Part shown: positions 8,756-64,000 of the stretch, piece by piece
Layout: each line of letters begins with the position of its first letter
Numbering within the stretch: position 1 is the first letter of the stretch
Assembly (NCBI GenBank): GCA_964451495.1
Contig: CAYVHS010000005.1
Coordinates: 8,926 to 72,925, forward strand
Reading direction: 5' to 3'
DNA from: an uncultured Bdellovibrionales bacterium
GTDB lineage: Bacteria > Patescibacteriota > Minisyncoccia > Moranbacterales > UBA1568
Length of the DNA: 64,000 nucleotides
Translations under genes and position numbers: made by a program
The notes under the pieces: model-generated
What the model saw: only the letters and a program-made list of their open reading frames with translations
What the model was told of the DNA's origin: nothing
Databases searched by the model: none

Positions 8756-9760
8756 TTATCGTTTCTCGTACTGTTTCTCGTAATATTTCTGGTACGCGCC
8801 AGACTTCACGTTTTTCCACCACGTCTCATTTTTCTGGTACCACGCCACGGTCTGAGCCAGCCCCTCTAACAAAGAAACTGATGGCTGCCAACCGAGCTCG
8901 TTTTTGATCTTGGAATAGTCGATAGCATAACGACGGTCATGTCCCGCACGATCTTTCACATACTCGATAGCGCTTTCATCCTTGCCGAGGAGCACGAGGA
9001 GTTGCTTGACGATCCAAATATTCTCTCGTTCGCCGTCTCCTCCGACACAGTAGGTCTCGCCGATCCTGCCCCGATGGATGATTGCATCGATAGCACTACA
9101 GTGATCCTTCACATGGAGCCAATCACGCACCTGAGCACCATCGCCATAGACCGGTACCGATTTGCCCTCAAGGATATTGGTGATAGCGAGCGGGATGAGC
9201 TTTTCCGGAAAATGATAAGGCCCGTAGTTATTGGAGCAATTGGAAAGAGTGACAGGGAGTCCGTAGGTATGGAAATACGCCCGTACCAAATGATCCGAGC
9301 TCGCCTTGGATGCGCTGTACGGGCTCCGCGGGTCATACGGAGTATGCTCGTCAAACGGAGCATCATCCGGTGCCAATGCACCAAACACTTCGTCCGTCGA
9401 TACATGATGGAAACGCCGACCATACTTGCGAGCTGCTTCGAGGAGCACATGTGTCCCACGGACATTGGTCTCGAGGAAAATGCCTGGGTCCATGATAGAG
9501 CGATCCACATGAGACTCGGCCGCAAAATGCACCACAATATCGCACTCATCTACGAGTGGCTCGACTACTCCTATATCAGTAATACTCCCCCGGACGAAAC
9601 GATACCGAGGATCATCTTGCCACTGTGCCAGATTTTCCAAATTTCCCGCATACGTCAAAGCATCCAGATTGACTACCTCATACCCTGGATATGCCTTCAA
9701 GATGTGACGGATGAAATTGGATCCGATAAACCCCGCTCCGCCCGTGACTAAGAGTTTCAT
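8756..9760 (-). CDS. rfbB: dTDP-glucose 4,6-dehydratase
   Basis: 334 aa; MKLLVTGGAGFIGSNFIRH; canonical RmlB. Confidence 0.9.
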   Translation of the reverse strand: MKLLVTGGAGFIGSNFIRHILKAYPGYEVVNLDALTYAGNLENLAQWQDDPRYRFVRGSITDIGVVEPLVDECDIVVHFAAESHVDRSIMDPGIFLETNVRGTHVLLEAARKYGRRFHHVSTDEVFGALAPDDAPFDEHTPYDPRSPYSASKASSDHLVRAYFHTYGLPVTLSNCSNNYGPYHFPEKLIPLAITNILEGKSVPVYGDGAQVRDWLHVKDHCSAIDAIIHRGRIGETYCVGGDGERENIWIVKQLLVLLGKDESAIEYVKDRAGHDRRYAIDYSKIKNELGWQPSVSLLEGLAQTVAWYQKNETWWKNVKSGAYQKYYEKQYEKR

Positions 9761-34008: not shown

Positions 34009-36804
34009 CTACAAATATTTCGCGGTAAAACTTTTCTTGCAAGATTTGAGTTTTTCAGGTGTTCCAGAAAAAACGAGTTCACCACCCTTTTCGCCACCAT
34101 CCGGTCCCAGTTCAATCACCCAATCTGCTGAAGCAATAACATCCACATTGTGTTCAACGACCAGTACAGTGTTACCTTTATCTACCAACGCCTCAAGTAC
34201 CTCGAGCAAGCGACGGACATCTTCGAAATGAAGCCCTATCGTCGGCTCGTCCAGAATATAGAGCGTCTTGCCAGTCGATTTGCGAGCGAGCTCTGTAGCG
34301 AGTTTGATACGCTGTGCTTCGCCACCCGAGAGATTGGTCGCACTTTGCCCCAATACGAGATAGCCAAGACCTACCTCCTCAAGCACTCGGAGTTTCTCTT
34401 CAATTATCGGCTGATCGAGGAAAAAATGTCGTGCCTCGGTCACTGTCATACGGAGCACTTGTGCGATATTTGTCCCGCGATATTCGATTGAGAGAGTCTT
34501 AGCATTATAGCGTGTTCCCTGACAAACTTCACATGGTACATACACATCCGGCAAAAGATACATCTCTATCTTTTTCAGACCACCGCCCTGACAAGCTTCA
34601 CAACGACCACCACGCATATTGAAACTGAAGTGACTAGCTGAGAACTTCTCGCGTTTGGCCTCGGCTGTTTCTGCAAATAAATCCCGGATCATACTAAATA
34701 CTCCGGTATACGTCGCCGCATTAGAGCGAGGGGTGCGGCCGATAGGATCCTGATTGACAGAAATAACCTTGTCGATATTGCCCAATCCGTCTATTTTCTT
34801 GTGTCTGCCCGGCTCAGCCTTGGCATGATAAAAATATTTCGAAAGAGCTCGTGCCAAAATATCGTGCACCAAACTCGATTTCCCAGAACCGGATACTCCC
34901 GCTACCGCGACGAGCATGCCGAGAGGAATCTCTACATCGACATTTTTCAAATTGTGCTCTGTCGCCCCATGAATCGTGATGGCGTCTCCGGATCCTTTGC
35001 GACGCTTTGTTTTTTCAGATACCTCACGTTTACCCGAGAGGTACTGTCCTGTCAAAAGTTTCGAACGCATGAGTTTGTCTGGTGTGCCAGCAAAAATCAC
35101 TTCGCCGCCCTCGCTGCCCGCTCCTGGACCCATGTCTATGATATAGTCAGCTCGTCGCATAATCGCGACATCATGCTCTACGATAACCAACGAATTATTG
35201 GCTGTGCGCAAATCTTCTAGTGCATGGATGAGACGTTCAGTATCCCGATTATGCAGTCCTACGGATGGCTCATCGAGCACATAGATGATTCCAGAAAGCC
35301 CGGATTTCATCTGGACCGAGAGACGAATACGTTGTGCTTCGCCACCAGAAAGTGTGTCCGCGCTCCGGCACAACTCGAGATAGCCCAATCCGACTTTTTC
35401 TACGGCGCGCATGCGTGTTTCCATCTCACTAAAAAGCGGGGAAATGACACTTTTCTCTGCTGATTTTAACAGCTTGCCACAGAGTGGCTCAAGCACCTCC
35501 AAAAATTTTTCCACACTCAGCTCCACGAGCTCATGTATCGAATACTCTCCTACTTTTACCGCAAGCGATTCCGACTTCAGACGCTTTCCCTGGCAAAGAG
35601 GGCAAACACGCGTCAGCATATACGCCTCGATCTCCGCGCGCAAATGATCAGATTTCGTCTCTCGATATTTCCGCTCAAGCAAATGTATCACCCCTGGGAA
35701 AGCGTCTTCTTTACCCTCCTCACCAAATAAAACAATAGAAAGTTGTTTGCTAGAAAATTTCTTGACCGGGGTATCGAGAGAAAACTTGAGACGTTTCGCA
35801 AGATTACGCAGCATAACCATCGGCCCCTGCCCTGCCTGTCGGTCACCGTTCATCTTGCTCCACGGGCGGATCGCGCCTTCGGAAAGAGAGAGGTTCTTAT
35901 TTGGTATGACCAATTCCGGATCAAATTCGAGCGCTACACCCAGACCAGAACATTTCACACAGGCACCATCAGGATTATTGAAAGAGAAGTGGCTCGGAGT
36001 GAACGCTGGTAAAAAAACATCACACGCTTCACAACGATATTCTTCATTATAAATTTTTGTTTCACCGCTGCCATTAACACGAAGCAAGAGCGTCCCATGC
36101 CCTACATGAAATGCTGTTTGCAAAGAATCCAAGATACGCTCTTTATCCGGACGTGCGCGAGAAAGTACGAGTCGATCAATAACCACGAGCATATCCGAAT
36201 GTTCTGTGGCAGATGCTTCTGCTATCGCTTCGGCAACAGAAACTACTTCTCCTCGAAAACAAACGCGTACATACCCCCAAGCGCTTATGAGAGCAAGGGC
36301 CTCTTTTTCCGTTTTCAAGGCAAGCACAGAGCTCTCGGCGAGAAACACAAGTGGCGTCTCGTCAGGTAACTCGAGAATTTCATCTAAAATCTGCCGCACA
36401 CTTTTACGAGAAAGGACTTTGCCACACTGCGGGCAATGCGGTACGCCCAATTTGGCAAAAAGGACTCGCAGATAATCATACACTTCTGTCATGGTCCCCA
36501 CGGTCGATCGTGGACTGCGCGACACACTCTTCTGGTCGATAGAGATGGCCGGCGAGAGATTGCGGATAGCATCGACATCTGGTTTGTCGAAACCATCGAG
36601 GAAATTGCGTGCATACGAAGAAAGCGACTCAACATAACGCCGATTCGCTTCCGCAAAAAGAGTATCGAAAGCCAAGGATGATTTCCCTGATCCAGATAAC
36701 CCGGTAATGACCACAAGGGCATCACGCGGAATATCAACACTCACGTTCTTCAAATTATTGACTCGGGCACCTCGGATTTCAATCACTGAATTTTTCGCTG
36801 GCAT
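34009..36804 (-). CDS. uvrA: Excinuclease ABC subunit A (full-length, with UvrB-binding and insertion domains)
   Basis: Two ABC modules (GLSGSGKSS / [14 protein letters not shown] signatures); Zn modules CPQC...CEAC and CVKC...(~125 aa)...CPLC. Start at the ATG at 36804. Confidence 0.9.
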
Positions 36805-37013
36805 AGAGCGTATGGCTGAGAGCAAAAAATGATACAATTGTTTCTCAGTATACTCGCTTTTCGCGCGACTGTAAAGACTGTGGATAAAGTCAAAATCCAA
36901 ATTTCAAATGCCAAATGAATCTCGCCTCCGCCAGTTGGCGGATGGCGGACTAAGCGCTAAGCCCTAAAAATCCGTTTTGGACATTTTTCACTTTTGATTT
37001 GACTTGATATTCG

Positions 37014-38315
37014 TCATTTGGTTTTTGGGCTTCTCCCGAGAAATTCTTTGCCACGGCGTTTGCGATGAAAGGTGACAGCGAAACGATGGGCCTCGCTATT
37101 GGCCAAAAGAATATTAGCGCGTACATGAGCGAACCCCGGTGGAAGATTGATGATGTCTTTGGGCTGATGACGAGCATCTTTCACGACACCCACCAGGAGA
37201 GGCTGTACTGTTTCTGTTTCTGCAAAAAGCCTTTCTGCTACGCCGAGCTGGAGAAACGATCCGTCCACGATGATAATATCAGGATTCCCCCACTCAGGAT
37301 GTTTCATTCGTCGCTGCATAATCTCTTCGAGCGCAGACAAATCGTTGCCGCCATGCTCGCCACGCAAGATGAATTTCTTGTATGATTCTTTTTCTGGCCT
37401 GCCATCTTGCATCACCACCATCACGCCGACACTCGCCCCGCCACCCAAGTGAGCGACGTCATACGCCTCCATCCGGATACCCTCTACGGCATGATTCCTT
37501 TCTCGCACGTCCTCTTTGATGAGTGCCATGTCCTGAATATGTTGCAAACCAAACAGCGTTCTTTTGATTTCTCCGGCTCGCTCAAACTCGAGCGCATGAG
37601 CAGCCGCTTTCATTTCATTCGTCAGCTGTTTTACCAAAACGCTTTTGCGTCCCTCGAAAAACAAACGGATATGATTGATCATGCGACCATACTCTCGTGC
37701 AGTCACTGCCCCCGTACACACCCCCGGACAGAGACCAATCTGCGCCGAGAAACAAGGCTTGGTCTTTAGCTGGCGCGCCTCGGGCACTGTCTCATACGGC
37801 ATACACGTATCACGAAACGGAAACAACTTGCGCACGATCTTTATCGCCTCACGCAGTCCTGAACCTGATGGGAACGGCCCAAATATATATTTCGTCGGTT
37901 CGATGAATTTTCCTTGTGCGATATCGCGACCGCGCACGATGAGTACTCGTGGAAATGTTTCTTGTGTAATAACAACATGATTGTAGCTCTTGTCATCTTT
38001 CTCATCGGTATTGTAATACGGCTGGTGTTCTTTGATGAGTTTCGATTCGAGGATGAGTGCTTCGAGCACCGAGTCCGTTTTCCGATGCGCGACGAAACAT
38101 ACCTTTTCGAGCATGAGAACAATTTTCGGGCCACGCGTCACAGAAATATCCTGGGCGAAATAGCTCTTCACCCGATCGCGGAGTGACGTCGCTTTACCGA
38201 TATAAAGTAACTTCTTTTCTTGATCCAAGAAGAAATATACTCCCGGGGTTTCCGGCAATACATTCTTTTTCTGAAACATCTTCAGAGGAATAACTTTTTC
38301 CCAGAGTTTCGACAT
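37014..38315 (-). CDS. uvrC: Compact UvrC-like excinuclease (GIY-YIG plus UvrC core; C-terminal HhH region absent)
   Basis: PGVYFFLDQEKKLLYIGKATSLRDRVKSYF (GIY-YIG), PDIIIVDGSFLQLG, AHRFAVTFHRKRR; 433 aa against ~600 aa for canonical UvrC. Confidence 0.7.
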   Translation of the reverse strand: MSKLWEKVIPLKMFQKKNVLPETPGVYFFLDQEKKLLYIGKATSLRDRVKSYFAQDISVTRGPKIVLMLEKVCFVAHRKTDSVLEALILESKLIKEHQPYYNTDEKDDKSYNHVVITQETFPRVLIVRGRDIAQGKFIEPTKYIFGPFPSGSGLREAIKIVRKLFPFRDTCMPYETVPEARQLKTKPCFSAQIGLCPGVCTGAVTAREYGRMINHIRLFFEGRKSVLVKQLTNEMKAAAHALEFERAGEIKRTLFGLQHIQDMALIKEDVRERNHAVEGIRMEAYDVAHLGGGASVGVMVVMQDGRPEKESYKKFILRGEHGGNDLSALEEIMQRRMKHPEWGNPDIIIVDGSFLQLGVAERLFAETETVQPLLVGVVKDARHQPKDIINLPPGFAHVRANILLANSEAHRFAVTFHRKRRGKEFLGRSPKTK

Positions 38316-52850: not shown

Positions 52851-53336
52851 TCATTGATTGGTGAATCGCCTGATGATATCAGTAGTCGACTCATTCTTTG
52901 TCGCACCAAGCTCGATAATCCGAGTGCCGATGCTTGTGAGCAATGCGAAACGTCGTCTATCGTCACACACGCGAACGTGCGAAGTCGACGAGGCCACATA
53001 GATATCGGGTTTGACCGCTGTGATTAATTCGTCATCAGAATCAAAAACAACAACCCAATCTACCGGTGAAAATCCAGCCAAAGTAAAGGCTCGATCATCC
53101 TGGCCACGCACTGGTCGACTCGCACCTTTGAGTGCTCTGACTGATACATCGCTATTAATACCTACTACGAGAGTAGGCCCAAATTCTGACGCATCACAGA
53201 TATATTCGAGATGCCCGCCGTGCAAAAGATCAAAACATCCGCTCGTCAGAACAATGCTCTCGCCAGCATGTTTACCCGTCTGGCAAATCTGGGATAATTG
53301 TTCCAGTGTCGCGACTATCTTGTTTCTCGGATGCAT
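52851..53336 (-). CDS. Cytidylyl/adenylyl-transferase of the RfaE-domain-II / TagD family
   Basis: IVLTSGCFDLLHGGHLEYI carries the (H/T)xGH nucleotidyltransferase motif. Confidence 0.75.
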   Translation of the reverse strand: MHPRNKIVATLEQLSQICQTGKHAGESIVLTSGCFDLLHGGHLEYICDASEFGPTLVVGINSDVSVRALKGASRPVRGQDDRAFTLAGFSPVDWVVVFDSDDELITAVKPDIYVASSTSHVRVCDDRRRFALLTSIGTRIIELGATKNESTTDIIRRFTNQ

Positions 53337-53485
53337 GATACGTCCTCCCTATCGAAATGTACTGCTCATAAAGTACACCAAAAAATCACTAAGCGCAAGA
53401 CGGACATCCTCCGCGCCGACACCTGATGCGATACAACTGTTTCGTGATAAGAGGAGCCCTATCAAAGGATACTTCTCACGTGGCG

Positions 53486-54376
53486 TCACTGTGACTTTTT
53501 GCCTCCGAAATGTTCTAAGGCACGTAAGACTTCGATTGGCGTCACAAAAATGAGTGTATTGGACTGATCAGACGAAACATCATTGATCGTATTGAGCGTA
53601 CGCAGATGGAGCGCTCCATCGGCTGATGTGAGGATAGTCGCTGCTTTGGCCAGGTTTTCTGCCGCAATCACTTCACCCTCGGCTTTGATGATGACGGAAC
53701 GCTTCTCTCTTTCGGCTTCTGCTTGCTTGCCGATGACGCGCTTCATCTCTTCTGGTAGCGTCACGTCTTTGAGCTCGACTGAGTTGACCTTGACTCCCCA
53801 GACATCCGTGGCCGCATCCACGATAGTCCGGATGCGTTCGGCGATAGCATCACGCTTGGAAAGGAGTTCATCGAGATCGACTTCTCCGACGACATTGCGC
53901 ATTGTCGTCTGCGCCAGCTGTGACACCGCGTAGTAGACATCCTCTACTTCCAAGATAGCCTTTTCTGCTTCGGAAATCTTGTAGTAGATGACGGCGTTCA
54001 CGGTGACGGAAATATTGTCCTTGGTGATAGCTTCTTGATTCGGCACGTCTACCGCACGCACGCGCATATCGATTTTCTGATACGACTGAAATACTGGGAT
54101 AACGAGCCTCCAGCCAGGAGCCATGAGTCCGGTGAATTTTCCGATGGTAAATTTCACCCCGCGCTCATACTGATTGATCTGTTTGATAGAGAGCAACAGA
54201 ATAACGACGAGGATGATGAGCAATATAAGAGGCATATTGAATTCAAAAATATTTAAAAGCGTCATAATCGGTCCAGAAAACACAATGGCTCCAAACACGA
54301 GAAAAAACGGAAGTTTGTATTTCTCGAGAGACCGGGCGAGTTTTTCCGGGTCGATCTGACTCATGTCTTGCTTCAT
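53486..54376 (-). CDS. SPFH/band-7 (stomatin/HflKC-like) membrane protein
   Basis: N-terminal TM, SPFH core, coiled-coil C-terminus. Confidence 0.8.
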   Translation of the reverse strand: MKQDMSQIDPEKLARSLEKYKLPFFLVFGAIVFSGPIMTLLNIFEFNMPLILLIILVVILLLSIKQINQYERGVKFTIGKFTGLMAPGWRLVIPVFQSYQKIDMRVRAVDVPNQEAITKDNISVTVNAVIYYKISEAEKAILEVEDVYYAVSQLAQTTMRNVVGEVDLDELLSKRDAIAERIRTIVDAATDVWGVKVNSVELKDVTLPEEMKRVIGKQAEAEREKRSVIIKAEGEVIAAENLAKAATILTSADGALHLRTLNTINDVSSDQSNTLIFVTPIEVLRALEHFGGKKSQ

Positions 54377-54505
54377 AGATTAATTATTTAATACATAACA
54401 CACTCTCAGTATATCACTTCTCAACCACCCTTGTATCACCCCTACATCCTTCGAGTTCCCGAAAAAACGACCGCTCCCGTGCGGTAAAATACTCTACATC
54501 ACTAA

Positions 54506-54686
54506 ATATCTCGATTTACCGAGGCGGCAGAAACGGGGCAAAAGTAATCCCTAGATAATACGGCCAGATGACAGCTGCCAGCACCCCCTGCCAGAATGTC
54601 AGATGCAAGAAGCCAATAGTGAATATCCAAGCCGCTATCCACAGCCCACCCGAAAAGACATGATTTTCAATCTTGATTTTTTCCAT
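54506..54686 (-). CDS. Possible 59-aa two-helix membrane peptide (below the ORF-track cutoff)
   Basis: MEKIKIENHVFSGGLWIAAWIFTIGFLHLTFWQGVLAAVIWPYYLGITFAPFLPPR read from ATG 54686 on the minus strand. Confidence 0.3.
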
Positions 54687-54696
54687 ATGAGTATGA

Positions 54697-54918
54697 TTAT
54701 CCCTGTGCCGATGGTGTCTCTGCCTTTGCTACCGGTCGCACTGGCATGACAAAAACAGCGAAAATATAGGCGATGACGCCAGGTACAAATCCAGTAAAGA
54801 CCGTGAGTAAAACCCAAAGGAGCCGGAGAACCACCGGATCAATATCCCAATATTCCCCCAAACCGCCACACACCCCCGCCAACGTCTTATTCGTATTACT
54901 CCGATAGAGATGCTTCAT
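54697..54918 (-). CDS. PspC-domain protein
   Basis: RSNTNKTLAGVCGGLGEYWDIDPVVLRLLWVLL matches the PspC signature. Confidence 0.65.
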   Translation of the reverse strand: MKHLYRSNTNKTLAGVCGGLGEYWDIDPVVLRLLWVLLTVFTGFVPGVIAYIFAVFVMPVRPVAKAETPSAQG

Positions 54919-55007
54919 AGGTATTCGTCTTTATGGATTACATATGTAATAGTATCTTCGGCTTTGTTTTCTTTCACGAGTGCAGACCAAGTCACTCAAA
55001 GGCTGTT

Positions 55008-55604
55008 TTACTTGGGTTTGCGAACCACAAAGAAAAACAGTGTCGCCGCGATAGCCCCGAGGGTATCTGCGAGCATGTCCTTTTGCGCATCCCAGATATC
55101 ACCCTGGCTGCCCAAATAGGCCATAGCATCGGCAGCATTGGACTGTGCAGCATAGATCCACTCGACCAATTCATAACTCATGGCGATAGTCGCGATGACA
55201 AAAACAGGATACGTGAACAGCAGAAATCTATTGGCTACCAATTTTTTGCTCCAGAGCCACTCTGCGATAGCGAAGGCATAAAACCCGACCGAAAAATGTG
55301 CCATCCGATCGAAATGATTGCGAGAGAATCCGAAAAAATCAGTCACCCAATCAAACGGCACGAGCGCGAACGTATAGTGGCCTCCGATAGTATGCAAATA
55401 GATGAGCACAAACATGAGCGCATACGCGAGCCTCGAAAAGCACACCCCTCCCCAGTACAGGCCGCAGATGACCGCGAGAATAATCCAGACCGTCACATTC
55501 TCGGCAAACCAGGTCGTCCGGTCTATCGGATTGATAGCCAAAGCAGTAAAGAGTACGACATAGATCGCTAGCAAACCTCCCAAAAATTTTGATGAATTCT
55601 CCAT
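55008..55604 (-). CDS. DUF2238 (YjdF-like) membrane protein
   Basis: Multiple TM helices; HTIGGHYTF...RNHFDRMAHFS motifs. Confidence 0.6.
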   Translation of the reverse strand: MENSSKFLGGLLAIYVVLFTALAINPIDRTTWFAENVTVWIILAVICGLYWGGVCFSRLAYALMFVLIYLHTIGGHYTFALVPFDWVTDFFGFSRNHFDRMAHFSVGFYAFAIAEWLWSKKLVANRFLLFTYPVFVIATIAMSYELVEWIYAAQSNAADAMAYLGSQGDIWDAQKDMLADTLGAIAATLFFFVVRKPK

Positions 55605-55920
55605 ATTCTCATGCGTTATTTGTTTCCTCTATTATATCATCTCGCCAGCACCCATCCCAATCTAAAGACTAGGAATTTATATCAAAAAGGTACTTGACCC
55701 CTTTTCTTCTCGACGGCCCATTTCGACTCGAATCGAGGCGAGCACGGCGGGCGGCCGTCAGGTGAGGTAACATTTTAAAATTTGAACGAGAGGAATTGAA
55801 TATAGTTGGAAAAAAGACAACTAGAAAATAACCGATTGATCTTGACCACCACCCTACCCCCGATGAATGTCTTCGCCAGCTACAAAGATTTCGATGTATT
55901 CGCAATCATACAGGTGACTC

Positions 55921-55941
55921 ATTACGTAACTGGTTACGTAT
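55921..55941. promoter_or_regulatory. Tandem TTACGTAA-type palindromic sites (ATTACGTAAC-TG-GTTACGTAT), 12 bp centre to centre
   Basis: Same 8-mer palindrome core as in the 51464-51541 element; about 320 nt upstream of the DUF2238 gene. Confidence 0.4.
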
Positions 55942-56019
55942 ATTCTATCACCAAAAAACCCTGTCTAAAAACGAGTTTTCCCAGGAGAAATGCCTGGTGA
56001 GCGTAGTAATGTTGTAAAA

Positions 56020-56050
56020 AAAGAAGCCTATTCCCCGTTTGGGAAATAGG
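56020..56050 (-). terminator. Terminator of gene 56064..56621 (hairpin CCTATTCCC-CGTTT-GGGAAATAGG + T-run on the minus strand)
   Basis: 9-bp stem with a 1-nt bulge, followed by TTCTTTTTTT on the minus strand. Confidence 0.5.
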
Positions 56051-56063
56051 CCCTGGGCGCTGT

Positions 56064-56621
56064 TCATGGCAACGCTGAGGCGCAGATGGCCTCGCACATG
56101 ATATCAGTCAGTTTATCTGTGTTGTAGCCAAACAGTACTGGCGGACGTCCACCTGCCTCGATAGAGACTATTTGTCTCCAATCACAAGGAAGGCAAATGA
56201 TCTCGCACTGCGTATCAAGCGAAAGGCCATTGGCATAGAAGAGGTCGTCTATGGTCGTCATGTCTATACCAATGGCTCTGACGACAGAAGGAATCCTCCT
56301 CATACGACCGAAATCACTCTTCTCCCACGGAACATACTGACAATCATGCGCATGGAGATGAAACCAACCAGATACTCTCTTTGCGACATAACACTCCCCC
56401 AGGTACCGATCGTACTGATCGAGGGTTACTTCAAAAAGCAAATGCACGTACATCTCTTCCTGGGCGACATCATCCGAAACAGCATTACCGAAAAGATACA
56501 CGATAATATGCTGTTGCCGCAACAGAGCCTCCAACTCGTGAGCAAGGCGAATTGCCTGTTCTCTCGTCACATTTTCCACGGAACACTCCTCATAATAAAA
56601 AACTACCCTCCAGTATAGCAC
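56064..56621 (-). CDS. Hypothetical protein
   Basis: 185 aa; Cys/His-rich; no confident motif. Confidence 0.45.
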   Translation of the reverse strand: MLYWRVVFYYEECSVENVTREQAIRLAHELEALLRQQHIIVYLFGNAVSDDVAQEEMYVHLLFEVTLDQYDRYLGECYVAKRVSGWFHLHAHDCQYVPWEKSDFGRMRRIPSVVRAIGIDMTTIDDLFYANGLSLDTQCEIICLPCDWRQIVSIEAGGRPPVLFGYNTDKLTDIMCEAICASALP

Positions 56622-56695
56622 AAAACAGACGCTACGAATATCCTGGGCATCTGCAGCGAATTCAGACCATAAAATCCTCTTACACTGTTTTCACT

Positions 56696-56914
56696 TCAAA
56701 GCTTGCCGAGTTCTTTCAGGTCTTTGTCAGGAAGATATAAAATGAGAAGTCCCACGATAATGCCCCCCACCGAGGTATAGACCAGATTGCCACCCAGCAA
56801 TTCGATATCGATGATATCGAGGAGATGCCAGATACCGCGCCAGACGAACACTACACCGACGACAACAGCGATGTTATGTGTAAAATACCGAATGATATGA
56901 TGCCGGGTGAACAT
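56696..56914 (-). CDS. Small two-helix membrane protein
   Basis: 72-aa hydrophobic ORF. Confidence 0.35.
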   Translation of the reverse strand: MFTRHHIIRYFTHNIAVVVGVVFVWRGIWHLLDIIDIELLGGNLVYTSVGGIIVGLLILYLPDKDLKELGKL

Positions 56915-57039
56915 AAAGTATCGATTAGCAGGTTACTATGGAAGTATATCATAGACAATGGTATACGTACTCTGCATAATCTCTCATGCGTCACGAGGGG
57001 TCCTGTCTTTCATCACATACGAACTTGTCCAGGTAGCCC

Positions 57040-57612
57040 GTGCCCACGAAGAGGAGTATACTAGAAAGTGTCGTATCATTCATCTGCACGCCTATGGAAC
57101 ACAATCAACCCACCGAACAGGAAATTCCCCGTCTCCAAGCCCTGGCTCTGGCTGCTCCAGAATACCTGGGATCACCGACTTCCCTCATCATCCATACGGT
57201 ATTTTTTGTCGGGATTTTTGTGCTACAACTTTTCGGCTTCTCGTTCGACCAGGTCATGCTCATCCTGACCACGCTCGTCTCACTCGAAGCTATCTATCTT
57301 TCGCTCTTCATCCAGATCACTGTCAATCAGCATGCCAGACAGATCGAGGAAGTCAGCGAAGACGTGGAAGAGCTCGGCGAGGATGTCGAGGAGATTTCCA
57401 AGGACATCGATATCATCCAAGAAGACGTCAAAGAGATTGGTGAGGATGTCGAGGATATTTCCGAGGATGTGGAAGAGCTCGGCGAAGAAATCGAACAAGA
57501 TGACCATGAAGACGCTATCGAACGCACCGAGGATCAGAAACGTATCGATCGCATCGAATCTGCCATCGAAATTCTCCTCAAAGAAATTCAGGCTATCAAA
57601 AAAGAAAAGTAG
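57040..57612 (+). CDS. Membrane protein with an acidic tandem-repeat tail (E-D-V-E-E-[LI]-[GS] x7) and a C-terminal coiled coil
   Basis: Two TM helices, then VSEDVEELGEDVEEISKDIDIIQEDVKEIGEDVEDISEDVEELGEEIEQDD. The likely start is MEHNQ at 57094. Confidence 0.55.
   Translation: MPTKRSILESVVSFICTPMEHNQPTEQEIPRLQALALAAPEYLGSPTSLIIHTVFFVGIFVLQLFGFSFDQVMLILTTLVSLEAIYLSLFIQITVNQHARQIEEVSEDVEELGEDVEEISKDIDIIQEDVKEIGEDVEDISEDVEELGEEIEQDDHEDAIERTEDQKRIDRIESAIEILLKEIQAIKKEK
57340..57500 (+). repeat. Degenerate ~21-24-nt tandem repeats (GAAGAYGTSGARGAGMTYKSC...) encoding the acidic repeat of gene 57040..57612
   Basis: About seven imperfect in-frame copies. They also create spurious antisense ORFs (57280..57507, 57327..57527). 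Confidence 0.6.
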
Positions 57613-57678
57613 TTGTTCTGCAGACTACTCATTCATGCGCCCGGCACATCGCCGGGCTTTTCGTTTCTACAAGAAGAC

Positions 57679-58182
57679 TCATATCTTGCGACTGTCGTAG
57701 GCCCAGTGGAGCAATGCCTGACGCTGACGTGGTCGACAGAAGATATCACCCCTCCGGCAATGACGTGCGAGCTGAGCAATATGCCTCTGTATGGCTCGCC
57801 ATCGTTTGACCTGCCTTTCATCCTCGCCCGGAATGCGCCGGCCCATATAGTAGCGACAATACCACTGAAACCATCCCCGAGGATCATCGGGAAATATCCA
57901 TCCTTTGGCTCGCCAGACTGCGAGGGATTGGCTCGCATCAACATTGAAGCAATTGAGGCTTGGGTTTCGTTTCTCTGGGGAAAGTTTGGCATGAGAAAAC
58001 CAGTTTCCAGGAAATTCTTCTCGACAATCCGTCATATATTTACCACCAAAAACACCCAAAGAAAGCATCTGCTCGGGTGTCAGATCTGGCTTGAAATCAG
58101 GATGAAAATGCTTGCCTATCGGCTCGGAAAGCTCATACTGATATCCATCCTGCATCGTATCGTGCACCACGACTCGTTTCAT
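57679..58182 (-). CDS. Conserved hypothetical protein (W/R-rich; KGWIFPDDPRGWFQWYCRYYMGRR motif)
   Basis: 167-aa ORF; the motif looks like a conserved domain, but the family cannot be named from memory. Confidence 0.5.
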   Translation of the reverse strand: MKRVVVHDTMQDGYQYELSEPIGKHFHPDFKPDLTPEQMLSLGVFGGKYMTDCREEFPGNWFSHAKLSPEKRNPSLNCFNVDASQSLAVWRAKGWIFPDDPRGWFQWYCRYYMGRRIPGEDERQVKRWRAIQRHIAQLARHCRRGDIFCRPRQRQALLHWAYDSRKI

Positions 58183-58193
58183 AGGAGAAGGGT

Positions 58194-58673
58194 TTAGGAT
58201 TTTTTCAATGCTTTCACATCAGCGAGGATTTTTTCAGCGTGATCATCAGGTTTTACATTGCTATAGATCTGAGCGATCTTGCCGGTCGGTGCGATGAGAA
58301 ATGTCGTCCGGAACACACCCATATATTCACGACCCATGAATTTCTTTTTGCCCCAAACGCTATAGAGTGTCACGACTTTCTTTTCTTCATCAGAGAGGAG
58401 CGTGAATGGCAACGAAAATTTCTCGATAAATTTACGGTGTTTGAGTGCTGAGTCAGGGGAAACACCGAGTACCACGACACCGGCGCGTTTGAACTTGGCA
58501 TACCCATCACGAAACCCGCACGCCTCCATCGTACAGCCAGGAGTATTGTCTTTGGGATAAAAATACAGAACAACCCATTTGCCTTCGTACTGCTTGAGCG
58601 TGTGGATGACATCATTCTGATCAGGCAAGCTCATCGCTGGTGCTTTCTGACCTATTCTCGGTGGCATGTGCAT
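58194..58673 (-). CDS. bcp: Thiol peroxidase / peroxiredoxin Bcp
   Basis: VVLYFYPKDNTPGCTMEACGFRD carries the peroxidatic and resolving Cys. Confidence 0.85.
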   Translation of the reverse strand: MHMPPRIGQKAPAMSLPDQNDVIHTLKQYEGKWVVLYFYPKDNTPGCTMEACGFRDGYAKFKRAGVVVLGVSPDSALKHRKFIEKFSLPFTLLSDEEKKVVTLYSVWGKKKFMGREYMGVFRTTFLIAPTGKIAQIYSNVKPDDHAEKILADVKALKKS

Positions 58674-58722
58674 AGGATTGAATTCATAAATAATAAAAGG
58701 ATTGGTAACTACTACATCTGCG

Positions 58723-58977
58723 TCATAGAGCTCCTTCTCTCTTAAGCAATCGGGCTTTGACTAGTGTACCGCCACGATTATACTGCCCGAGCGTCCCATC
58801 ACTACGGATGACCCGATGGCATGGAATGGCTGGATTGAGATTCTTGCGCATAATAGAGCCGACCGCACGAGCTGCTCCCGGATTGCCAGCCTGAGCGGCT
58901 ACTTCAGCATACGAGAGCGTCTCTCCTCTAGGGATAGTGGCTACGATACCCAAAACTTTTTCGGTGAATGTCTTCAT
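58723..58977 (-). CDS. ogt: Single-domain methylated-DNA-protein-cysteine methyltransferase (C-terminal MGMT domain only, active-site Cys retained)
   Basis: 84 aa; IPRGETLSYAEVA...NPAIPCHRVI carries the PCHR active site. No N-terminal domain. Confidence 0.75.
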   Translation of the reverse strand: MKTFTEKVLGIVATIPRGETLSYAEVAAQAGNPGAARAVGSIMRKNLNPAIPCHRVIRSDGTLGQYNRGGTLVKARLLKREGAL

Positions 58978-58985
58978 GTGTTTTA

Positions 58986-60566
58986 CTACACTGTTACCAG
59001 TCCGAGCTTCCGCAGACGCGATCGGATAGCACCAGGATTACGTCCGAGCTTCTCACTCATCTCTTTCATCTGCTTACCTCGAGAGAATAATCGTTTGAGC
59101 TCCTTCTCTTCTTCCGGATTCCAGGCACGATAGGCATTGGTATGTTTTTCACGAATCTTTTCGAGGGAATAGGATTTTTCTTCCTCTCCTTTTTTCTGAG
59201 ATTCTTTTTTTGGCTTTTTCTCTTTTGTTTTTTTGTGCGAACCTATTTTGCCACCACAAACGATGATGAAATTATGTTCTAACTCATGGATTTTCTCTTT
59301 CGAATATGCACTGAAAGTCTCACGAGCTTCACGAGAGGCCTCGCGGAATATACAGTCCTGCTCGAGCACGGTCGGATGGACTTGGAACGCTCGCTCATTC
59401 AGGCCAATCAAATGGACCCCCGACAAACGCCTGACGCGAGAAAGAGCCACATACCCCTGGCCAAATTCGAATGTCTGCGAAAGATCCATGACAGCCGCGT
59501 CGAGACTGACTCCCTGGCTTTTATGGATCGTCATGGCCCACGCGAGACGGAGCGGCAGCTGGATGACTTTGGCCAGTGCTTCCTCGCCCTCGGCGATGAC
59601 CCATTCCATGGGTTCGACCAAGATACGACGGCCATCATGTGTCTCGACGAGCGGATAACGAGTTGTACTATCAAAACCAATCACCGTACCAAGTGTCCCA
59701 TTGGCAAATCCTTCATTCGGATTGTTCTTGGTGAACATCACTACGGCACCATCTTTGAGCTCGAGGCGCTCTGGCGAGAGACACCCGCGTTTGAGTGCAT
59801 CGGTCAGCCCGGCCGGCCCACGATCAGCCATGGTAAATCCGTACGTCTTGCCAGGCAGTTTCATGAGCTCGAGTGCGTTGATCTTGTCCACATCGACATT
59901 ATGAGAAAAAAGCCTCGTCGTGTTTTCGGGTAATTCCTCGGTAGCCAGCATCCGCATTTCGACGCGTTCTCGATGTATCGACAAACAGGCGTTACTGCGA
60001 ATAGCCGTCAGTACTTCGAGGAAAGCATCGTCCTCCTGACGATGCTGTTCTGTGAGATAGCATGTCCGGAACCCCATCATCTGCCAAGCGTCAGACTGGA
60101 AAGCGAATTGCATCTTCTCGCCGCCTTTCGCCACCGGCGGCAACTGGAAAAAATCCCCTACGACGATGACCTGAAGCCCGCCAAAGGGCAAATGGCCCTT
60201 GCGCACACGACGACACACGGCTTCGACCAAAGCAAAGACATTGCCATCGAGCATGGATATTTCATCGATGATGAGGACCTTGGCTTTCTTGATACGCTTA
60301 GCAGTACGGCCATTCCCGGCGATGTCTCGAATCAAATCTTTATCAACCACGCGTGCAATACCGATACCGCTCCACGAATGAATAGTCATGCCATGGATAT
60401 GCGTCGCAGCGATACCCGTCGAAGCCGTGACGGCGTAATCGATCTCATGCTCGCGCAAATATTCCGTATACCTGTTGATGGTATGCGTCTTGCCTGAACC
60501 CGCCTCACCAGTCAGAAAAACACTGGCGCCGGTCTTGAGTATCGTGAGCGCTTCTTCTTGGGTCAT
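58986..60566 (-). CDS. Pif1-family SF1B DNA helicase with a C-terminal basic linker and HTH-like tail
   Basis: FLTGEAGSGKTH, ASTGIAA, TIHSW, IIDEISM, VGDFFQLPPV, EQHRQ, TIHKSQG, YVALSR; C-terminal K/E-rich linker followed by GRNPGAIRSRLRKLGL. Confidence 0.8.
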   Translation of the reverse strand: MTQEEALTILKTGASVFLTGEAGSGKTHTINRYTEYLREHEIDYAVTASTGIAATHIHGMTIHSWSGIGIARVVDKDLIRDIAGNGRTAKRIKKAKVLIIDEISMLDGNVFALVEAVCRRVRKGHLPFGGLQVIVVGDFFQLPPVAKGGEKMQFAFQSDAWQMMGFRTCYLTEQHRQEDDAFLEVLTAIRSNACLSIHRERVEMRMLATEELPENTTRLFSHNVDVDKINALELMKLPGKTYGFTMADRGPAGLTDALKRGCLSPERLELKDGAVVMFTKNNPNEGFANGTLGTVIGFDSTTRYPLVETHDGRRILVEPMEWVIAEGEEALAKVIQLPLRLAWAMTIHKSQGVSLDAAVMDLSQTFEFGQGYVALSRVRRLSGVHLIGLNERAFQVHPTVLEQDCIFREASREARETFSAYSKEKIHELEHNFIIVCGGKIGSHKKTKEKKPKKESQKKGEEEKSYSLEKIREKHTNAYRAWNPEEEKELKRLFSRGKQMKEMSEKLGRNPGAIRSRLRKLGLVTV

Positions 60567-60687
60567 AAAAAATTATTCATCTTGTACTGTACTATCATAC
60601 GTGATAGACCAGGCTCTGGCAAAGCAAAGAAAAAGAGCGGGCGTGTACATGTACATATCCGCTCCTCGGCTGATTCCCAGCCATACT

Positions 60688-61044
60688 TCACTGACCAATG
60701 AAACGACGCGTACTCGTATACAGCCGTCCATTCAAACCCCCTTTGGCGCAACGCACGAAATGGAACACTTGGCGCCATTTGCCTCTCCCGAGTCGGTAGA
60801 TGATCTCGATAGCATCATCACCATGATAGGGGCGTCCCTCGTGATTGATAGAAAAATGCTCGACAGCCATATTGGTCGATGAGCATTCGGGAAGCATACC
60901 GTGATGATGCTCTAGAATGAGCGCGGCAACCTTTTTCTGCATCAGAGCTGAGAAACGCTCTTTCAAAAAACAGGTATTCTCAAATAATTGCCCCATCTCT
61001 TCGGGAGAAAAAACCACAGCGACACCACACATTTGGCCTTGCAT
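60688..61044 (-). CDS. Hypothetical protein with an His-rich EHHHG..P.CSSTN motif (possibly a degenerate JAB/MPN-like metal site)
   Basis: 118 aa; the motif resembles, but does not match, HxHx7Sx2D. Confidence 0.4.
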   Translation of the reverse strand: MQGQMCGVAVVFSPEEMGQLFENTCFLKERFSALMQKKVAALILEHHHGMLPECSSTNMAVEHFSINHEGRPYHGDDAIEIIYRLGRGKWRQVFHFVRCAKGGLNGRLYTSTRRFIGQ

Positions 61045-61169
61045 ATTATCCTCCTTTCACTTGGCTAGACTTCGATTGAAAAAGGTACAGCACATGCACC
61101 TCTAGCATAGTACAAATGGCACAAAATAGCATCTCTCTACAAAACAAGATTCAATAAAAGAAAAAGCAA

Positions 61170-63755
61170 TTATTGTTTCAAAATCTTTCTGAGATATTCA
61201 CCGGTATATGAACCCTTTTTCACGACCACTTGTTCGGGTGTGCCGCAAGCGACTACTTGTCCACCCGCTGCTCCACCCTCGGGGCCAATATCGATGATAT
61301 AGTCGGCACTCTTGATGAGGTCCATGTTGTGTTCGATGACGAGAACAGTATTGCCCTTGACCACGAGACGATCGAGAATCTCGATGAGCTTTCTCACGTC
61401 TTCATAATGCAGTCCGATAGTCGGTTCATCGAGGAGATAGATCGTACGTTCGACATGTTGACGATACAGTTCGGAAGAAATCTTCACACGTTGAGCTTCG
61501 CCACCAGAGAGTGTCGTAGCTGACTGTCCTACCTTCAAATAGCCGAGACCGACTTCATTGAGGGTTTTGAGACGATCGGCGATAGCGGGAATATCATAAA
61601 AAAACGCGTAGGCCTCTTCGACGGTCATTTCGAGTACTTCATAGATATTCTTATGCTTGTATCTCACTTCAAGCGTTTCCTTGGTGAAGCGCTTGCCGTC
61701 ACAAACATCGCACTGTACATACACGGTCGGCAAAAAATGCATTTCAACTGCGATGAAACCGTTGCCTTCACAGGTTTCACAGCGCCCCCCAGGACGATTG
61801 AAAGAAAAACGACCCGCCTTCCACCCGCGTACCCTGGCTTCTTCACTCGCCGCAAACAAATCACGGACATGCGTCCAGGCACCAGTGTACGTCGCTGGGT
61901 TGGAACGTGGCGTCCGACCAATCGGACTCTGATCGATAAGCACAGTACGAGAGAGATATTCCGTCCCGGTAAATGTCTGGCAATTGAAAACCTTGTTAGA
62001 TTTGTACCGGCGATCGAAACGGGCTTCGAGATTCTTATGAAGGATCTCATACATGAGAGTCGATTTGCCCGATCCAGAAACACCCGTAATCACACTGAAA
62101 CGACCGAGTGGAATATCGACATTCATGTTCTTGATATTGAACAGATTGCCACCGCGAATCTTGATGGTACCCTTATCCTTCTCCCGTCGCTTGGTTGGGA
62201 TAGCAATCTTTTCTTCACCGCGCAGGTATGCGAGCGTGAGTGATCCAGAAGTATTCTTTTTCGCCGTGAGGAGATCATGAAGATATCCTGAGACCACGAC
62301 CTCACCGCCATGGACACCAGCACCTGGACCGATATCGATAATGTAGTCCGAAGCAAATATCGTATCCTCGTCATGCTCGACAACGATGATAGTATTGCCC
62401 AAATCACGGAGAGATTTAAGCGTGCTAATAAGACGATCGTTATCACGCTGGTGAAGTCCGATGGTCGGTTCATCGAGGACGTAGAGTGCTCCGACCAATT
62501 TGGACCCGAGCTGTGAAGCGAGACGGATACGCTGTGCCTCGCCACCCGAGAGTGTGTTGGCCCGACGATCGAGCGAGAGATAATTGAGCCCAACATCGAG
62601 GAGGAACTGGACCCGTCCGCCAACTTCGCGTAATACCACCGCGGCGATTTGACGCTCACGCTCTGAAAGTTCGAGCGTATCGAAAAAATGTTTGACATCT
62701 GCGGTCATCATGGCCGTCACCTGGACGATATTTTTCCCGCCAATTTTCACATGCAGTGCTTCTTCGCGAAGGCGTGAGCCGTGACAGACTTCGCACGGCT
62801 CATCACCAAAGAAATGCTTGGTTCCGAGACCATTGCAGGCCTCACAGGCACCGTACGGCGAATTGAAAGAAAAAAGGCGTGGCTCTACTTCGGGATAAGA
62901 AAAACCATCATAGGGACAGGAAAATTTGGAAGAAAGAACAAAGTTTTCTTTCCCAATATGAATATTCACCAAACCATCGCTCTCTTCAATCGCCCGCTGT
63001 ACTGCCTCGGAAAGTCGCTCGTTTGATGTCTCGGGAAATTTCTCAAATTCAATAAGTGGCATTTCATCGACCACGAGGTCAATATCATGCTTCTTGTTTT
63101 TCGAAAGAAGAATCTGTTCACGGAGACTGAAACGATTCCCATCAAGAAAAATTTCACTGAAACCCTTGCTCAAAGAATTATAGAGCAACTGGTAGTACTC
63201 GCCCTTGCGACCACGTACGACGGGAGCCGTAATCGTGAGGACTTGCTTGCCTTTTTTCCCCAGAGCCAATGCCTGCTGTACCCGCTCTGATACGATCTCG
63301 AGCATCTCCTCGGGTGAAAGCTTTTGAATCTCACGATCACACACGAGACAGTGTGGCCGGCCGAGCCTCGCATACAAAACGCGCAAATAATCATAGATCT
63401 CAGTAATAGTCGCAACGGTCGAGCGCGGATTGCGACTCGCTGATTTCTGATCGATAGAGATAGCCGGTGAAAGTCCCAGAATCTCATCGACATCTGGTTT
63501 CTGCATGGTATTCAGAAACTGCCGCGCATAGGCGGAAAGTGATTCGACATAGCGACGCTGGCCCTCGGCAAAAATCGTATCGAACGCGAGAGACGATTTA
63601 CCAGACCCAGAAAGTCCCGTACACACAACCATCGCATTGCGAGGCATGTCGACCGAAATATTCTTCAAATTGTGTGTGCGGGCGCCACGGACCGAAATCC
63701 ATTCTGACGGCCCAGACGACGCATCAGCACTCTGATGCCCATGCTTCTTGGCCAT
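61170..63755 (-). CDS. uvrA2: UvrA paralog lacking the insertion domain (Zn-module-2 CxxC pairs only 14 aa apart); UvrB-binding-like domain retained
   Basis: 861 aa. Two ABC modules. [16 protein letters not shown]...[11 protein letters not shown] (UvrB-binding-domain-like). [23 protein letters not shown], against a ~125-aa spacing in the uvrA at 34009..36804. Confidence 0.85.
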
Positions 63756-64000
63756 AGTACGTATTCATTTACACGAAAACTCAGTATAGCTCTTTTTGGC
63801 GAGACTATCAAGGGACCAAAAGAAGACACCGAAGCGAGAGGAGCTAGAAGCAATCAAGAAGAATGCGGTACTCCTCTTCACGTTCCGGATGAACAACTAG
63901 TTCGATATGTTCCTCATTATCAAGCGCGGAAACAAAAGCAGGAAAATCAACCAGCCAATCCAAATTGACGAGAAAACGCGAAGTCGTCAGTTTCATGCTC

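Follow-up and report, generated by a model that had tools for sequence, protein, structure and literature searches.

We analysed a 64,000-nucleotide (nt) stretch of DNA, referred to here as the window (positions 8,926 to 72,925 of contig CAYVHS010000005.1, assembly GCA_964451495.1, placed by GTDB within Moranbacterales), which encodes two paralogues of the excision-repair protein UvrA and a short UvrC. One paralogue, UvrA2, keeps the UvrB-binding domain and lacks the entire insertion domain (ID). A natural UvrB-binding, ID-less UvrA is what appears to be new here; class I UvrA, the opposite loss in class II UvrA and engineered ID deletions were already known. Comparisons of sequence and gene order suggest that the ID-less copy is very probably the primary UvrA for nucleotide excision repair (NER) in this lineage. 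With more reservation, we favor the wider reading that much of the Parcubacteria group, Moraniibacteriota among them, has vertically inherited the ID-less UvrA2 as its NER damage sensor. The other paralogue, UvrA1, is most likely not a stand-alone canonical sensor. As judged from conserved domains and residues, neither paralogue is fully canonical, UvrA2 being canonical except for the ID and UvrA1 having an ID with its DNA-binding groove lost. The genes concerned, with lengths in amino acids (aa), are:

34009..36804, (-) strand: uvrA1, 931 aa from the ATG; a TTG-extended open reading frame (ORF) reaches 36900 (ORF call, Pfam, NCBIfam)
37014..38315, (-) strand: uvrC, 433 aa, with GIY-YIG, UVR and RNase H-like endonuclease domains and without (HhH)2, directly upstream of uvrA1
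61170..63755, (-) strand: uvrA2, 861 aa, UvrB-binding domain kept, ID absent (ORF call, Pfam, NCBIfam)

Loss of the insertion domain in UvrA2

A first-pass annotation of the window had recognized two UvrA paralogues, and Pfam, NCBIfam and the ORFs at these coordinates agree. Both proteins have the GLSGSGKS Walker A motif, the LDEP...VEHD/VEHN motifs, two ABC ATPase modules and a C-terminal zinc finger (C-x2-C-x19-C-x2-C). Both also pass the NCBIfam cut-offs for a UvrA equivalog, UvrA2 with 1239.5 bits to NF001503 (cut-off 1147) and 1177.1 bits to TIGR00630 (cut-off 729.8), and UvrA1 slightly below it with 1228 and 1175.7 bits, respectively. The elements of UvrA2 that matter most to the argument are:

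62784..62846, (-) strand: reduced Zn module 2 of UvrA2 (residues 304-324), the site of the missing ID
62955..63251, (-) strand: UvrB-binding domain of UvrA2 (Pfam UvrA_inter, residues 169-267)
61797..61865, (-) strand: ventral DNA-binding patch of UvrA2, intact, 23 residues

The same annotation held that the 61170..63755 copy had lost its ID and retained the UvrB-binding domain. The loss is indeed clean. Pfam places UvrA_inter at residues 169-267 of UvrA2 and finds no UvrA_DNA-bind (PF17755), the family of the ID, while UvrA1 has both (UvrA_inter 135-242, PF17755 295-393). Aligned by phmmer to Bacillus stearothermophilus UvrA (2r6f), as had been proposed, UvrA1 matches end to end and UvrA2 in two blocks, 5-313 to chain residues 8-303 and 314-860 to chain residues 417-957, and the gap between the blocks is exactly the ID. 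In the alignment to Escherichia coli UvrA, residues 277-289 and 406-409 are present in the loop (406 onward aligned) and 290-405 are replaced by the four residues GDEP. The short spacer between CEAC (304-307) and CEVC (321-324) of UvrA2 is therefore real, but it measures 13 residues rather than the 14 first reported, and CVKC (282-285) and CPLC (401-404) of UvrA1 are separated by 115 residues, not by about 125.

The objection that the cysteine pairs had been mis-assigned and that an ID is present elsewhere in the protein fails. A custom ID hidden Markov model (HMM) matched only UvrA1-type genes among the 15427 ORFs of 84 loci, and no ID-like segment was found elsewhere in UvrA2 or nearby; nor did these ORFs include a stand-alone ID protein able to act in trans. 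An AlphaFold2 model of UvrA2, built with database homologues (pLDDT 83.2, pTM 0.74), has no extra domain, and its mini-loop region is folded confidently (pLDDT 74-89). As a separate observation, in the ID-less family Zn module 1 has the form C-x2-C ... C-x2-D (UvrA2 residues 136-139 and 280-283; window 63339..63350 and 62907..62918). C136, C139, C280 and D283 are invariant in 65 ID-less sequences, with Asp where UvrA1 (CPQC...CEAC) has the fourth Cys.

We then compared conserved residues in an alignment to E. coli UvrA of 119 UvrA1-family, 115 Moran-type ID-less and 58 Parcubacteria-type ID-less sequences. The Walker A lysines K37 and K646 are kept in 119/119, 114-115/115 and 58/58, respectively, and R216, at the UvrB interface, is invariant in the UvrA1 family and in both ID-less types (115/115 Moran-type, 58/58 Parcubacteria-type). 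Position E222 is E in 58/58 Parcubacteria-type sequences, Q or E in the Moran type, and Q, A, S or H in the UvrA1 family. In E. coli UvrA, combined mutation of R712, R722, R724 and R730 abolishes DNA binding, and G502D impairs damage discrimination (PMC3025350). Each of these four arginines is kept in 114-115 of the 115 Moran-type and 53-58 of the 58 Parcubacteria-type sequences, and all four equivalents are Arg in UvrA2 of the window. The G502 position is G in the ID-less families and K or R in the UvrA1 family. Overall, the ID-less families retain 0.89/0.87 of the canonical-invariant residues versus 0.79 for UvrA1; at 371 columns invariant in four canonical references, family-specific replacements number 11 in the ID-less family, mostly conservative, and 36 in UvrA1.

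Distribution, gene order and the proposed repair pathway

The closest database proteins to both UvrAs are named Candidatus Moranbacteria or Moraniibacteriota (Patescibacteria, Parcubacteria group). The best 120 relatives of UvrA2 share 77-100% identity with it, are about 855-870 aa long and have PF17755 in 0/120 cases. A scan of one genome per GTDB species recovered 80 loci, at 67-86% identity to UvrA2, whose titles include Moraniibacteriota, Paceibacterota, Taylor-, Zambryski- and Adlerbacteria, Minisyncoccia and 'Parcubacteria group'. The pattern C-x2-C-x13-C-x2-C occurs in 79/79 complete orthologues, with the consensus tail +.FF....C..C.G.RLR and a conserved mini-loop, NGLGT+xFF. Shared by the 79 complete orthologues of other genomes, with a spacer that is always 13 residues long, the ID-less architecture is not a product of chance or assembly error; to judge from such conservation, it is a fixed and ancient feature, neither an artefact nor a decaying gene. 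Two further observations concern the source assemblies. Many TPA_asm metagenome-assembled genomes titled 'uncultured Bdellovibrionales' or 'Candidatus Saccharibacteria' (L006, L013, L019, L026 and others) carry Moran- or Parcubacteria-type uvr clusters, and their labels are probably wrong. Assembly CAZUII01 (L018, L046) has two different ID-less uvrA genes, at 87% and 68% identity, which suggests a mixed bin.

The gene neighborhood points to excision repair as well. In Parcubacteria-type loci, a same-strand uvrB lies upstream of the ID-less gene in 33 of the 38 with enough flank (median gap 957 nt) and a short uvrC downstream in 44/47 (median gap 408 nt), and an ID-bearing UvrA is found in 0/58. 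Moran-type loci have a same-strand uvrB upstream in 13/15, a short uvrC downstream in 6/16 and an ID-bearing UvrA in 4/14. P0350, a more distant ID-less UvrA (59% identity), also follows uvrB. No conserved small gene between uvrA and uvrC was found in the loci. Beyond this core arrangement, about 19 Parcubacteria-type loci (L041 3597..4466, for one) have a receiver-domain-like ORF of 130-290 aa that separates uvrB from the ID-less uvrA. The UvrB beside P0350 (L087 7798..9627) is 609 aa long with no UVR-domain hit on record, and may lack the UvrC-binding tail.

A related genome, GCA_028699965.1, has these genes in the order uvrB (695 aa)–ydjC–uvrA2 (ID-less)–small ORF–uvrC (438 aa)–uvrA1 (932 aa)–hypothetical–pilC. 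The window has the same blocks, ydjC–uvrA2 and uvrC–uvrA1–hypothetical–pilC, but about 23 kb apart. The uvr supercluster is here split by some 23 kb of unrelated genes (38.3-61.2 kb), compared with a gap of 0.5 kb between uvrA2 and uvrC in GCA_028699965.1 (L002 12.6-13.1 kb). At the far end of the window lies one more member of the cluster:

63847..63990, (-) strand: 3' end of a ydjC-family gene, which precedes uvrA2; uvrB lies beyond the window edge (tblastn, L001 gene map)

The absence of uvrB noted in the first-pass annotation holds for the window, where none was found among ORFs of at least 400 aa and a relative's UvrB gave no tblastn match, but it is a window-edge effect and has no biological meaning. 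Over window 52963..64000, the Logan contig L001 differs from the window at a single position in 11,038 nt (99.99% identity), and it continues for another 2.56 kb. The last 195 residues of UvrB, with helicase motif VI and the UVR domain, are encoded by the first 589 nt of L001, so that uvrB ends about 2 kb past base 64000.

UvrC had been described as compact, at 433 aa, with no HhH tail, and Pfam agrees (GIY-YIG PF01541 25-102, UVR PF02151 227-258, RNase H endonuclease PF08459 281-414, no HhH). This truncation is not, however, a peculiarity of one genome; it is the norm of the lineage. Among 54 UvrC orthologues beside an ID-less uvrA (397-516 aa, ending about 15-25 residues after the SEAHRF motif), GIY-YIG and RNase H domains are found in 54/54, UVR in 47/54 and any HhH family in 0/54. 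The DDH triad (D285, D350, H409) is invariant in the 54 sequences, and the invariant GIY-YIG residues Y26, Y37, R47 and E84 are present. The protein barely passes TIGR00194 (294.5 bits, cut-off 285.45) and fails NF001824 (221.5 bits, cut-off 451). Identification as Cho was ruled out, given the RNase H domain and 61.1 bits to NF007833 against a cut-off of 367. An engineered Deinococcus radiodurans UvrC-d(HhH)2 still binds UvrB, has nearly normal affinity for DNA and makes both incisions, its one defect being a partly impaired 5' cut (PMC10085695). Because dual incision survives in that construct, the natural HhH-less UvrC is plausibly functional by analogy.

These features suggest how a pathway built on UvrA2 could operate. 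An ID-less UvrA dimer would bind DNA only through the signature-II/zinc-finger groove and would load UvrB via the retained UvrB-binding domain. In E. coli, UvrA d290-400 supports incision but discriminates less well, and global repair is hit more than transcription-coupled (Mfd-dependent) repair (Manelyte et al., 2010; PMC3025350). Natural ID-less UvrAs, likewise deprived of the ID clamp, would probably discriminate damage more poorly than ID-bearing UvrAs, and specificity would depend more on UvrB verification, possibly with transcription coupling. A genome of about 1 Mb may pay little for non-productive binding. The HhH-less UvrC would then make both cuts, the 5' incision less efficiently, as in D. 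radiodurans UvrC-d(HhH)2. An E. coli Mfd query (E <= 1e-10) detected no mfd in the window or in the loci, a result that is uninformative for the genomes as a whole.

Several points weigh against UvrA2 as the general damage sensor of these bacteria. We infer the function of all ID-less members from sequence and synteny. According to current cryo-electron microscopy (cryo-EM) work, DNA coordination cannot do without the IDs (PMC11985968), and the two IDs of UvrA are described as clamping, unwinding and possibly flipping bases at the lesion, and as central to damage recognition and hand-off to UvrB (PMC11985968, PMC12796330). Given that view, a sensor with no ID needs an explanation, and the one offered above we can only infer. 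The counts of ID-bearing UvrA cover the loci, and a second, ID-bearing UvrA could sit elsewhere in Parcubacteria genomes. Finally, the tree discussed below (neighbor-joining, 48 sequences, 200 bootstraps) is midpoint-rooted, with no class II outgroup.

The ID-bearing paralogue and a possible asymmetric dimer

By its wording, the first-pass annotation had cast the 34009..36804 protein as the canonical UvrA and the ID-less copy as an accessory. The comparisons reverse these roles: the ID-less copy is widespread, slower-evolving and linked to uvrB and uvrC, whereas UvrA1 was seen only in Moraniibacteriota and carries the 36 replacements mentioned above. The features needed here are:

35605..35949, (-) strand: ID of UvrA1 (residues 286-400), trimmed
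34618..34686, (-) strand: ventral patch of UvrA1, degenerate, 23 residues
36847..36875, (-) strand: promoter-like -35/-10, TTTACA-17-TATACT, 43 nt 5' of the uvrA1 ATG in the uvrC-uvrA1 spacer; consensus match only
63783..63811, (-) strand: promoter-like -35/-10, TTGATA-17-TATACT, 28 nt 5' of the uvrA2 ATG; consensus match only

Named UvrA1 relatives are all Moraniibacteriota, both in searches with the window protein and in those with L024, the deepest UvrA1 found. UvrA1 and UvrA2 occur together in 15 inferred same-contig pairs and in six loci that show both genes directly, and because of this recurrence we regard the pair as stable in Moraniibacteriota. UvrA2 identity equals or exceeds UvrA1 identity in all 15 pairs (e.g. 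83 vs. 75%, 80 vs. 73%, 79 vs. 71%), and uvrA1 directly follows uvrC in every genome where it was seen.

The DNA-contacting parts of UvrA1 have diverged. Its ID is trimmed, with 11-16 residues of the beta-hairpin missing. In the alignment to Mycobacterium tuberculosis UvrA, the hairpin shows a gap of 11-15 residues and a Gly falls opposite Y323. Residue Y323 of the M. tuberculosis protein (E. coli Y316) has been placed as a wedge (Genta et al.); this Tyr wedge is lost in the UvrA1 family, the position being G in 113/119 sequences, and the E. coli Y317 position is P in 111/119. In the ventral patch, R712 is retained in the UvrA1 family, including the window protein, in which E, E and H take the places of R722, R724 and R730. 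Across the family, R722 is replaced by E in 86/119 (also K, G, V), R724 by E in 96/119 (also A, D), and R730 by H in 82/119 or Y in 33/119. The same degenerate pattern is repeated in 42 deeper UvrA1 relatives.

The defects of the two paralogues are complementary, and we tentatively propose that in Moraniibacteriota UvrA1 pairs with UvrA2 in an asymmetric heterodimer with one ID and one intact DNA-binding patch. In its strictest form, which we put forward only as a possibility, UvrA would be obligately asymmetric, UvrA2 giving a groove without an ID and UvrA1 a single ID with a disabled groove, as a two-gene counterpart of fused UvrAs. Such a dimer would be consistent with the division of labor between a 'recognition-ID' and a 'support-ID' that has been proposed from cryo-EM of symmetric UvrA (Genta et al.), and with the fused proteins themselves.

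Fused double UvrAs dominated the best 150 matches of a representative search with UvrA2, from which single-length ID-less families could not be charted. They are about 1800 aa long with two units in tandem (named examples are Planctomycetota MEW6747171.1 and Fibrobacterales MDB9744133.1). Four Walker A motifs are present in 81 cluster representatives, about half of which combine one ID-bearing and one ID-less unit (P0242-P0390, e.g. P0264, P0268, P0275); in P0242 and P0243, Pfam finds two UvrB-binding domains and one ID. The Zn2 spacer of the ID-less units is 10-28 residues, and exactly 13 in P0242 and P0249. Halves were classed by the custom ID HMM and Walker A spacing, and the patch was read by regular expression. 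Among the 29 fused UvrAs with one half of each kind, the ID-less half retains more patch arginines in 19, an equal number in 9 and fewer in 1. Mean basic residues, of four, are 3.17 in the ID-less and 2.24 in the ID-bearing half, with a nominal Wilcoxon p of 8e-5 that is indicative only, the representatives being related. Fusions with two ID-bearing halves show no such bias (3.12 vs. 3.47). Because the fused ID-less halves are not close kin of the Parcubacteria ID-less clade, the combination of an ID with a weak groove and of no ID with an intact groove arose repeatedly.

The pairing step has its own difficulties. Most lineages have the ID-less gene without a nearby UvrA1, so it evidently works without it. 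The absence of the Tyr wedge and part of the hairpin weakens the case for UvrA1 as a working recognition ID, and UvrA1 has its own promoter-like site. The p-value from the fused proteins, as stated, is nominal and drawn from related cluster representatives.

The main alternative is that the two proteins form independent homodimers and do not pair, UvrA2 serving general or Mfd-coupled excision repair and UvrA1 some other task; UvrA1 might, for example, handle a special class of lesion, have a regulatory function, titrate UvrB or protect against a DNA-binding toxin. We consider this somewhat unlikely. It would fit the occurrence of the ID-less gene without UvrA1 in 58/58 Parcubacteria-type and several Moran-type loci, the separate promoter-like sites, the 24 kb between the genes in the window, the relative proficiency of E. 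coli UvrA d290-400 in Mfd-dependent repair, and the precedent of class II UvrA paralogues with non-NER roles. However, a UvrA1 homodimer would have E, E and H for three arginines on both halves of its groove, and could hardly bind duplex DNA in the known way. UvrA1 also keeps the UvrB-binding domain and R216 and stands directly after uvrC wherever it is seen, and fused UvrAs join exactly these two types of unit in one chain. The failure to find mfd in the window or loci is uninformative either way. Pairing of UvrA1 with UvrA2 remains our tentative preference.

Much less probable is that UvrA1 is the canonical excision-repair sensor and the ID-less gene an accessory, like class II UvrA2, DrrC or Ecm16, a reading that we regard as largely refuted. 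UvrA1 does have every class I domain, scores above the NCBIfam thresholds for UvrA and adjoins uvrC. The ID-less copy, however, passes the same cut-offs with a higher score, retains all the DNA-binding arginines missing from UvrA1, has a much wider distribution and is located between uvrB and uvrC; it also has the UvrB-binding domain, which is absent from class II (PMC3167621), while named UvrA1 relatives are restricted to Moraniibacteriota. Moreover, it is the copy closer to Bacillus UvrA. Over 810 shared columns the paralogues are 47% identical to each other; UvrA2 is 58.5% and UvrA1 54% identical to Bacillus UvrA, and to a canonical 979-aa UvrA of Blackburnbacteria, another candidate-phyla lineage, they are 55% and 49% identical. 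Against Bacillus UvrA (2r6f), UvrA2 scores 1017 bits and UvrA1 992, though UvrA2 is the shorter.

The phylogeny called for in the first-pass annotation nests the second copy among class I UvrAs; class II proteins were compared by phmmer scores, UvrA2 reaching 598 bits with Deinococcus UvrA2 (2vf7) and 465 with Ecm16 (7sh1) versus about 1000 for class I. In the neighbor-joining bootstraps the ID-less clade was recovered in 200/200, as was its grouping with P0350, and in 187/200 these joined the canonical UvrAs of Blackburnbacteria and Bacillus. The UvrA1 clade (200/200) has a long branch and was sister to the ID-less clade in 0/200. This distance tree, although limited in sampling, is in line with the scores against the PDB structures. 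Since the ID-less clade nests with ID-bearing class I proteins and class II retains the ID, the parsimonious reading of these sequences is that the ID was lost secondarily within class I. Bacterial phylogenies often give the candidate phyla radiation a deep position, and BLAST aligns the mini Zn module 2 with the C-terminal zinc finger of the second ABC half, which it resembles; nonetheless, we give almost no credence to the ID-less form as a relic from before ID acquisition kept in a deep-branching radiation, because the clade groups with ID-bearing Blackburnbacteria and Bacillus UvrAs (187/200, 55-58% identity), the more distant Deinococcus class II UvrA (598 bits) still has an ID (PMC3025350), and ID-less units arose several times independently in fused UvrAs.

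Neighboring genes and relation to known UvrA systems

Among the products of the unrelated genes between uvrC and uvrA2 are PhoH-PIN, glutamate dehydrogenase, an ABC exporter, an ExoX-like exonuclease, a Band 7 protein and a peroxiredoxin. At 58723..58977 (-) lies an 84-aa O6-alkylguanine-DNA alkyltransferase consisting of the C-terminal DNA_binding_1 domain only, with the catalytic PCHR; the same gene sits inside the uvr cluster, between uvrB and ydjC, in Moran-type relatives L006-L022. This MGMT-domain neighbor was considered as an alkyltransferase-like (ATL) protein, which is ruled out by the catalytic PCHR cysteine. A PIF1-family helicase of 526 aa (58986..60566, (-)), whose last 90 or so residues form a lysine-rich tail, is encoded two genes downstream of uvrA2, likewise in L006, L009 and L010. 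Directly downstream of uvrA1 and a conserved 316-aa hypothetical gene are type IV pilus-like genes (26.3-32.8 kb, (-); a PilX_N-domain protein, PilC/T2SSF and others), and the same pilus-like neighbors follow uvrA1 in L002, L005, L008 and L017. A 1560-aa protein with two GT2 modules and a GT4 glycosyltransferase module is encoded at 137..4819 (-).

If the strictly asymmetric reading is correct, Moraniibacteriota would represent a natural, hard-wired version of the split between recognition and support IDs, and the rest of Parcubacteria would run excision repair without any ID and with an HhH-less UvrC. A bacterial radiation that keeps uvrB, uvrA and uvrC together under strong constraint, without the ID or the HhH of UvrC, suggests that a leaner excision-repair machine is viable. 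ID-less UvrAs are also natural proteins with which to ask what the ID is needed for, and because each of the two Moranbacteria paralogues is defective where the other is not, as are the halves of fused UvrAs, the asymmetry proposed for the UvrA dimer becomes directly testable. In public annotation all three architectures bear the name 'excinuclease ABC subunit UvrA', a single label that hides the differences between them.

We found no description in the literature of a natural UvrA with the UvrB-binding domain but without the ID; the search did not extend to the classification papers (Marszalkowska, 2013; Goosen and Moolenaar, 2008), so that a prior mention is possible. Searches on natural ID-less UvrA, UvrA classes IIb/III, and Patescibacteria NER or mfd gave nothing relevant beyond engineered deletions and class II definitions.

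Of the known systems, class I UvrA (E. coli, 2r6f, Thermotoga maritima 3pih, M. tuberculosis 3zqj) has the ATPase modules, signature motifs, UvrB-binding domain and C-terminal zinc finger common to both window proteins. Compared with class I, UvrA2 lacks the whole ID (E. coli 290-405) but keeps the four DNA-binding arginines, while UvrA1 has a trimmed ID, E/E/H at R722/R724/R730, K at G502 and G at the Tyr wedge. Class II UvrA has retained the ID but has neither the UvrB-binding domain nor Zn module 1 (PMC3167621, PMC9328131). Members of class II/IIa (D. radiodurans UvrA2 2vf7, DrrC, Ecm16 7sh1) are likewise second UvrA-family genes with a domain missing relative to class I. UvrA2 of the window is the reverse, with the UvrB-binding domain, present in both window proteins, kept and the ID lost, and so, as the first-pass annotation had suspected, it is a variant distinct from class II.

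The closest analogues of UvrA2 are engineered. Its natural deletion nearly matches the boundaries of E. coli UvrA d290-400, and both keep the UvrB-binding domain and ATPase core; B. stearothermophilus UvrA without its ID is, as far as its citation in PMC3025350 goes (Pakotiprapha, 2008), another such analogue. These deletions are laboratory constructs of proteins that evolved with an ID, whereas the loss in UvrA2 is natural, fixed across about 80 species and presumably accompanied by co-adapted partners, and the d290-400 phenotypes are only a guide to a natural ID-less UvrA. In the same way, UvrC of the window shares GIY-YIG, UVR and RNase H (DDH) domains with canonical UvrC and with D. radiodurans UvrC-d(HhH)2. 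Unlike that engineered protein, it ends naturally right after the RNase H domain, as do 54/54 orthologues, and unlike Cho, which makes the 3' incision only, it has the 5'-incision domain.

The fused UvrAs show the same pairing as UvrA1 and UvrA2, an ID-bearing unit with a weak patch and an ID-less unit with a better one, in one polypeptide rather than two genes and through independent losses of the ID. They are related in form to the Chlamydia-type NF001885 but are not members of it, scoring 1038-1270 bits against a cut-off of 3054.

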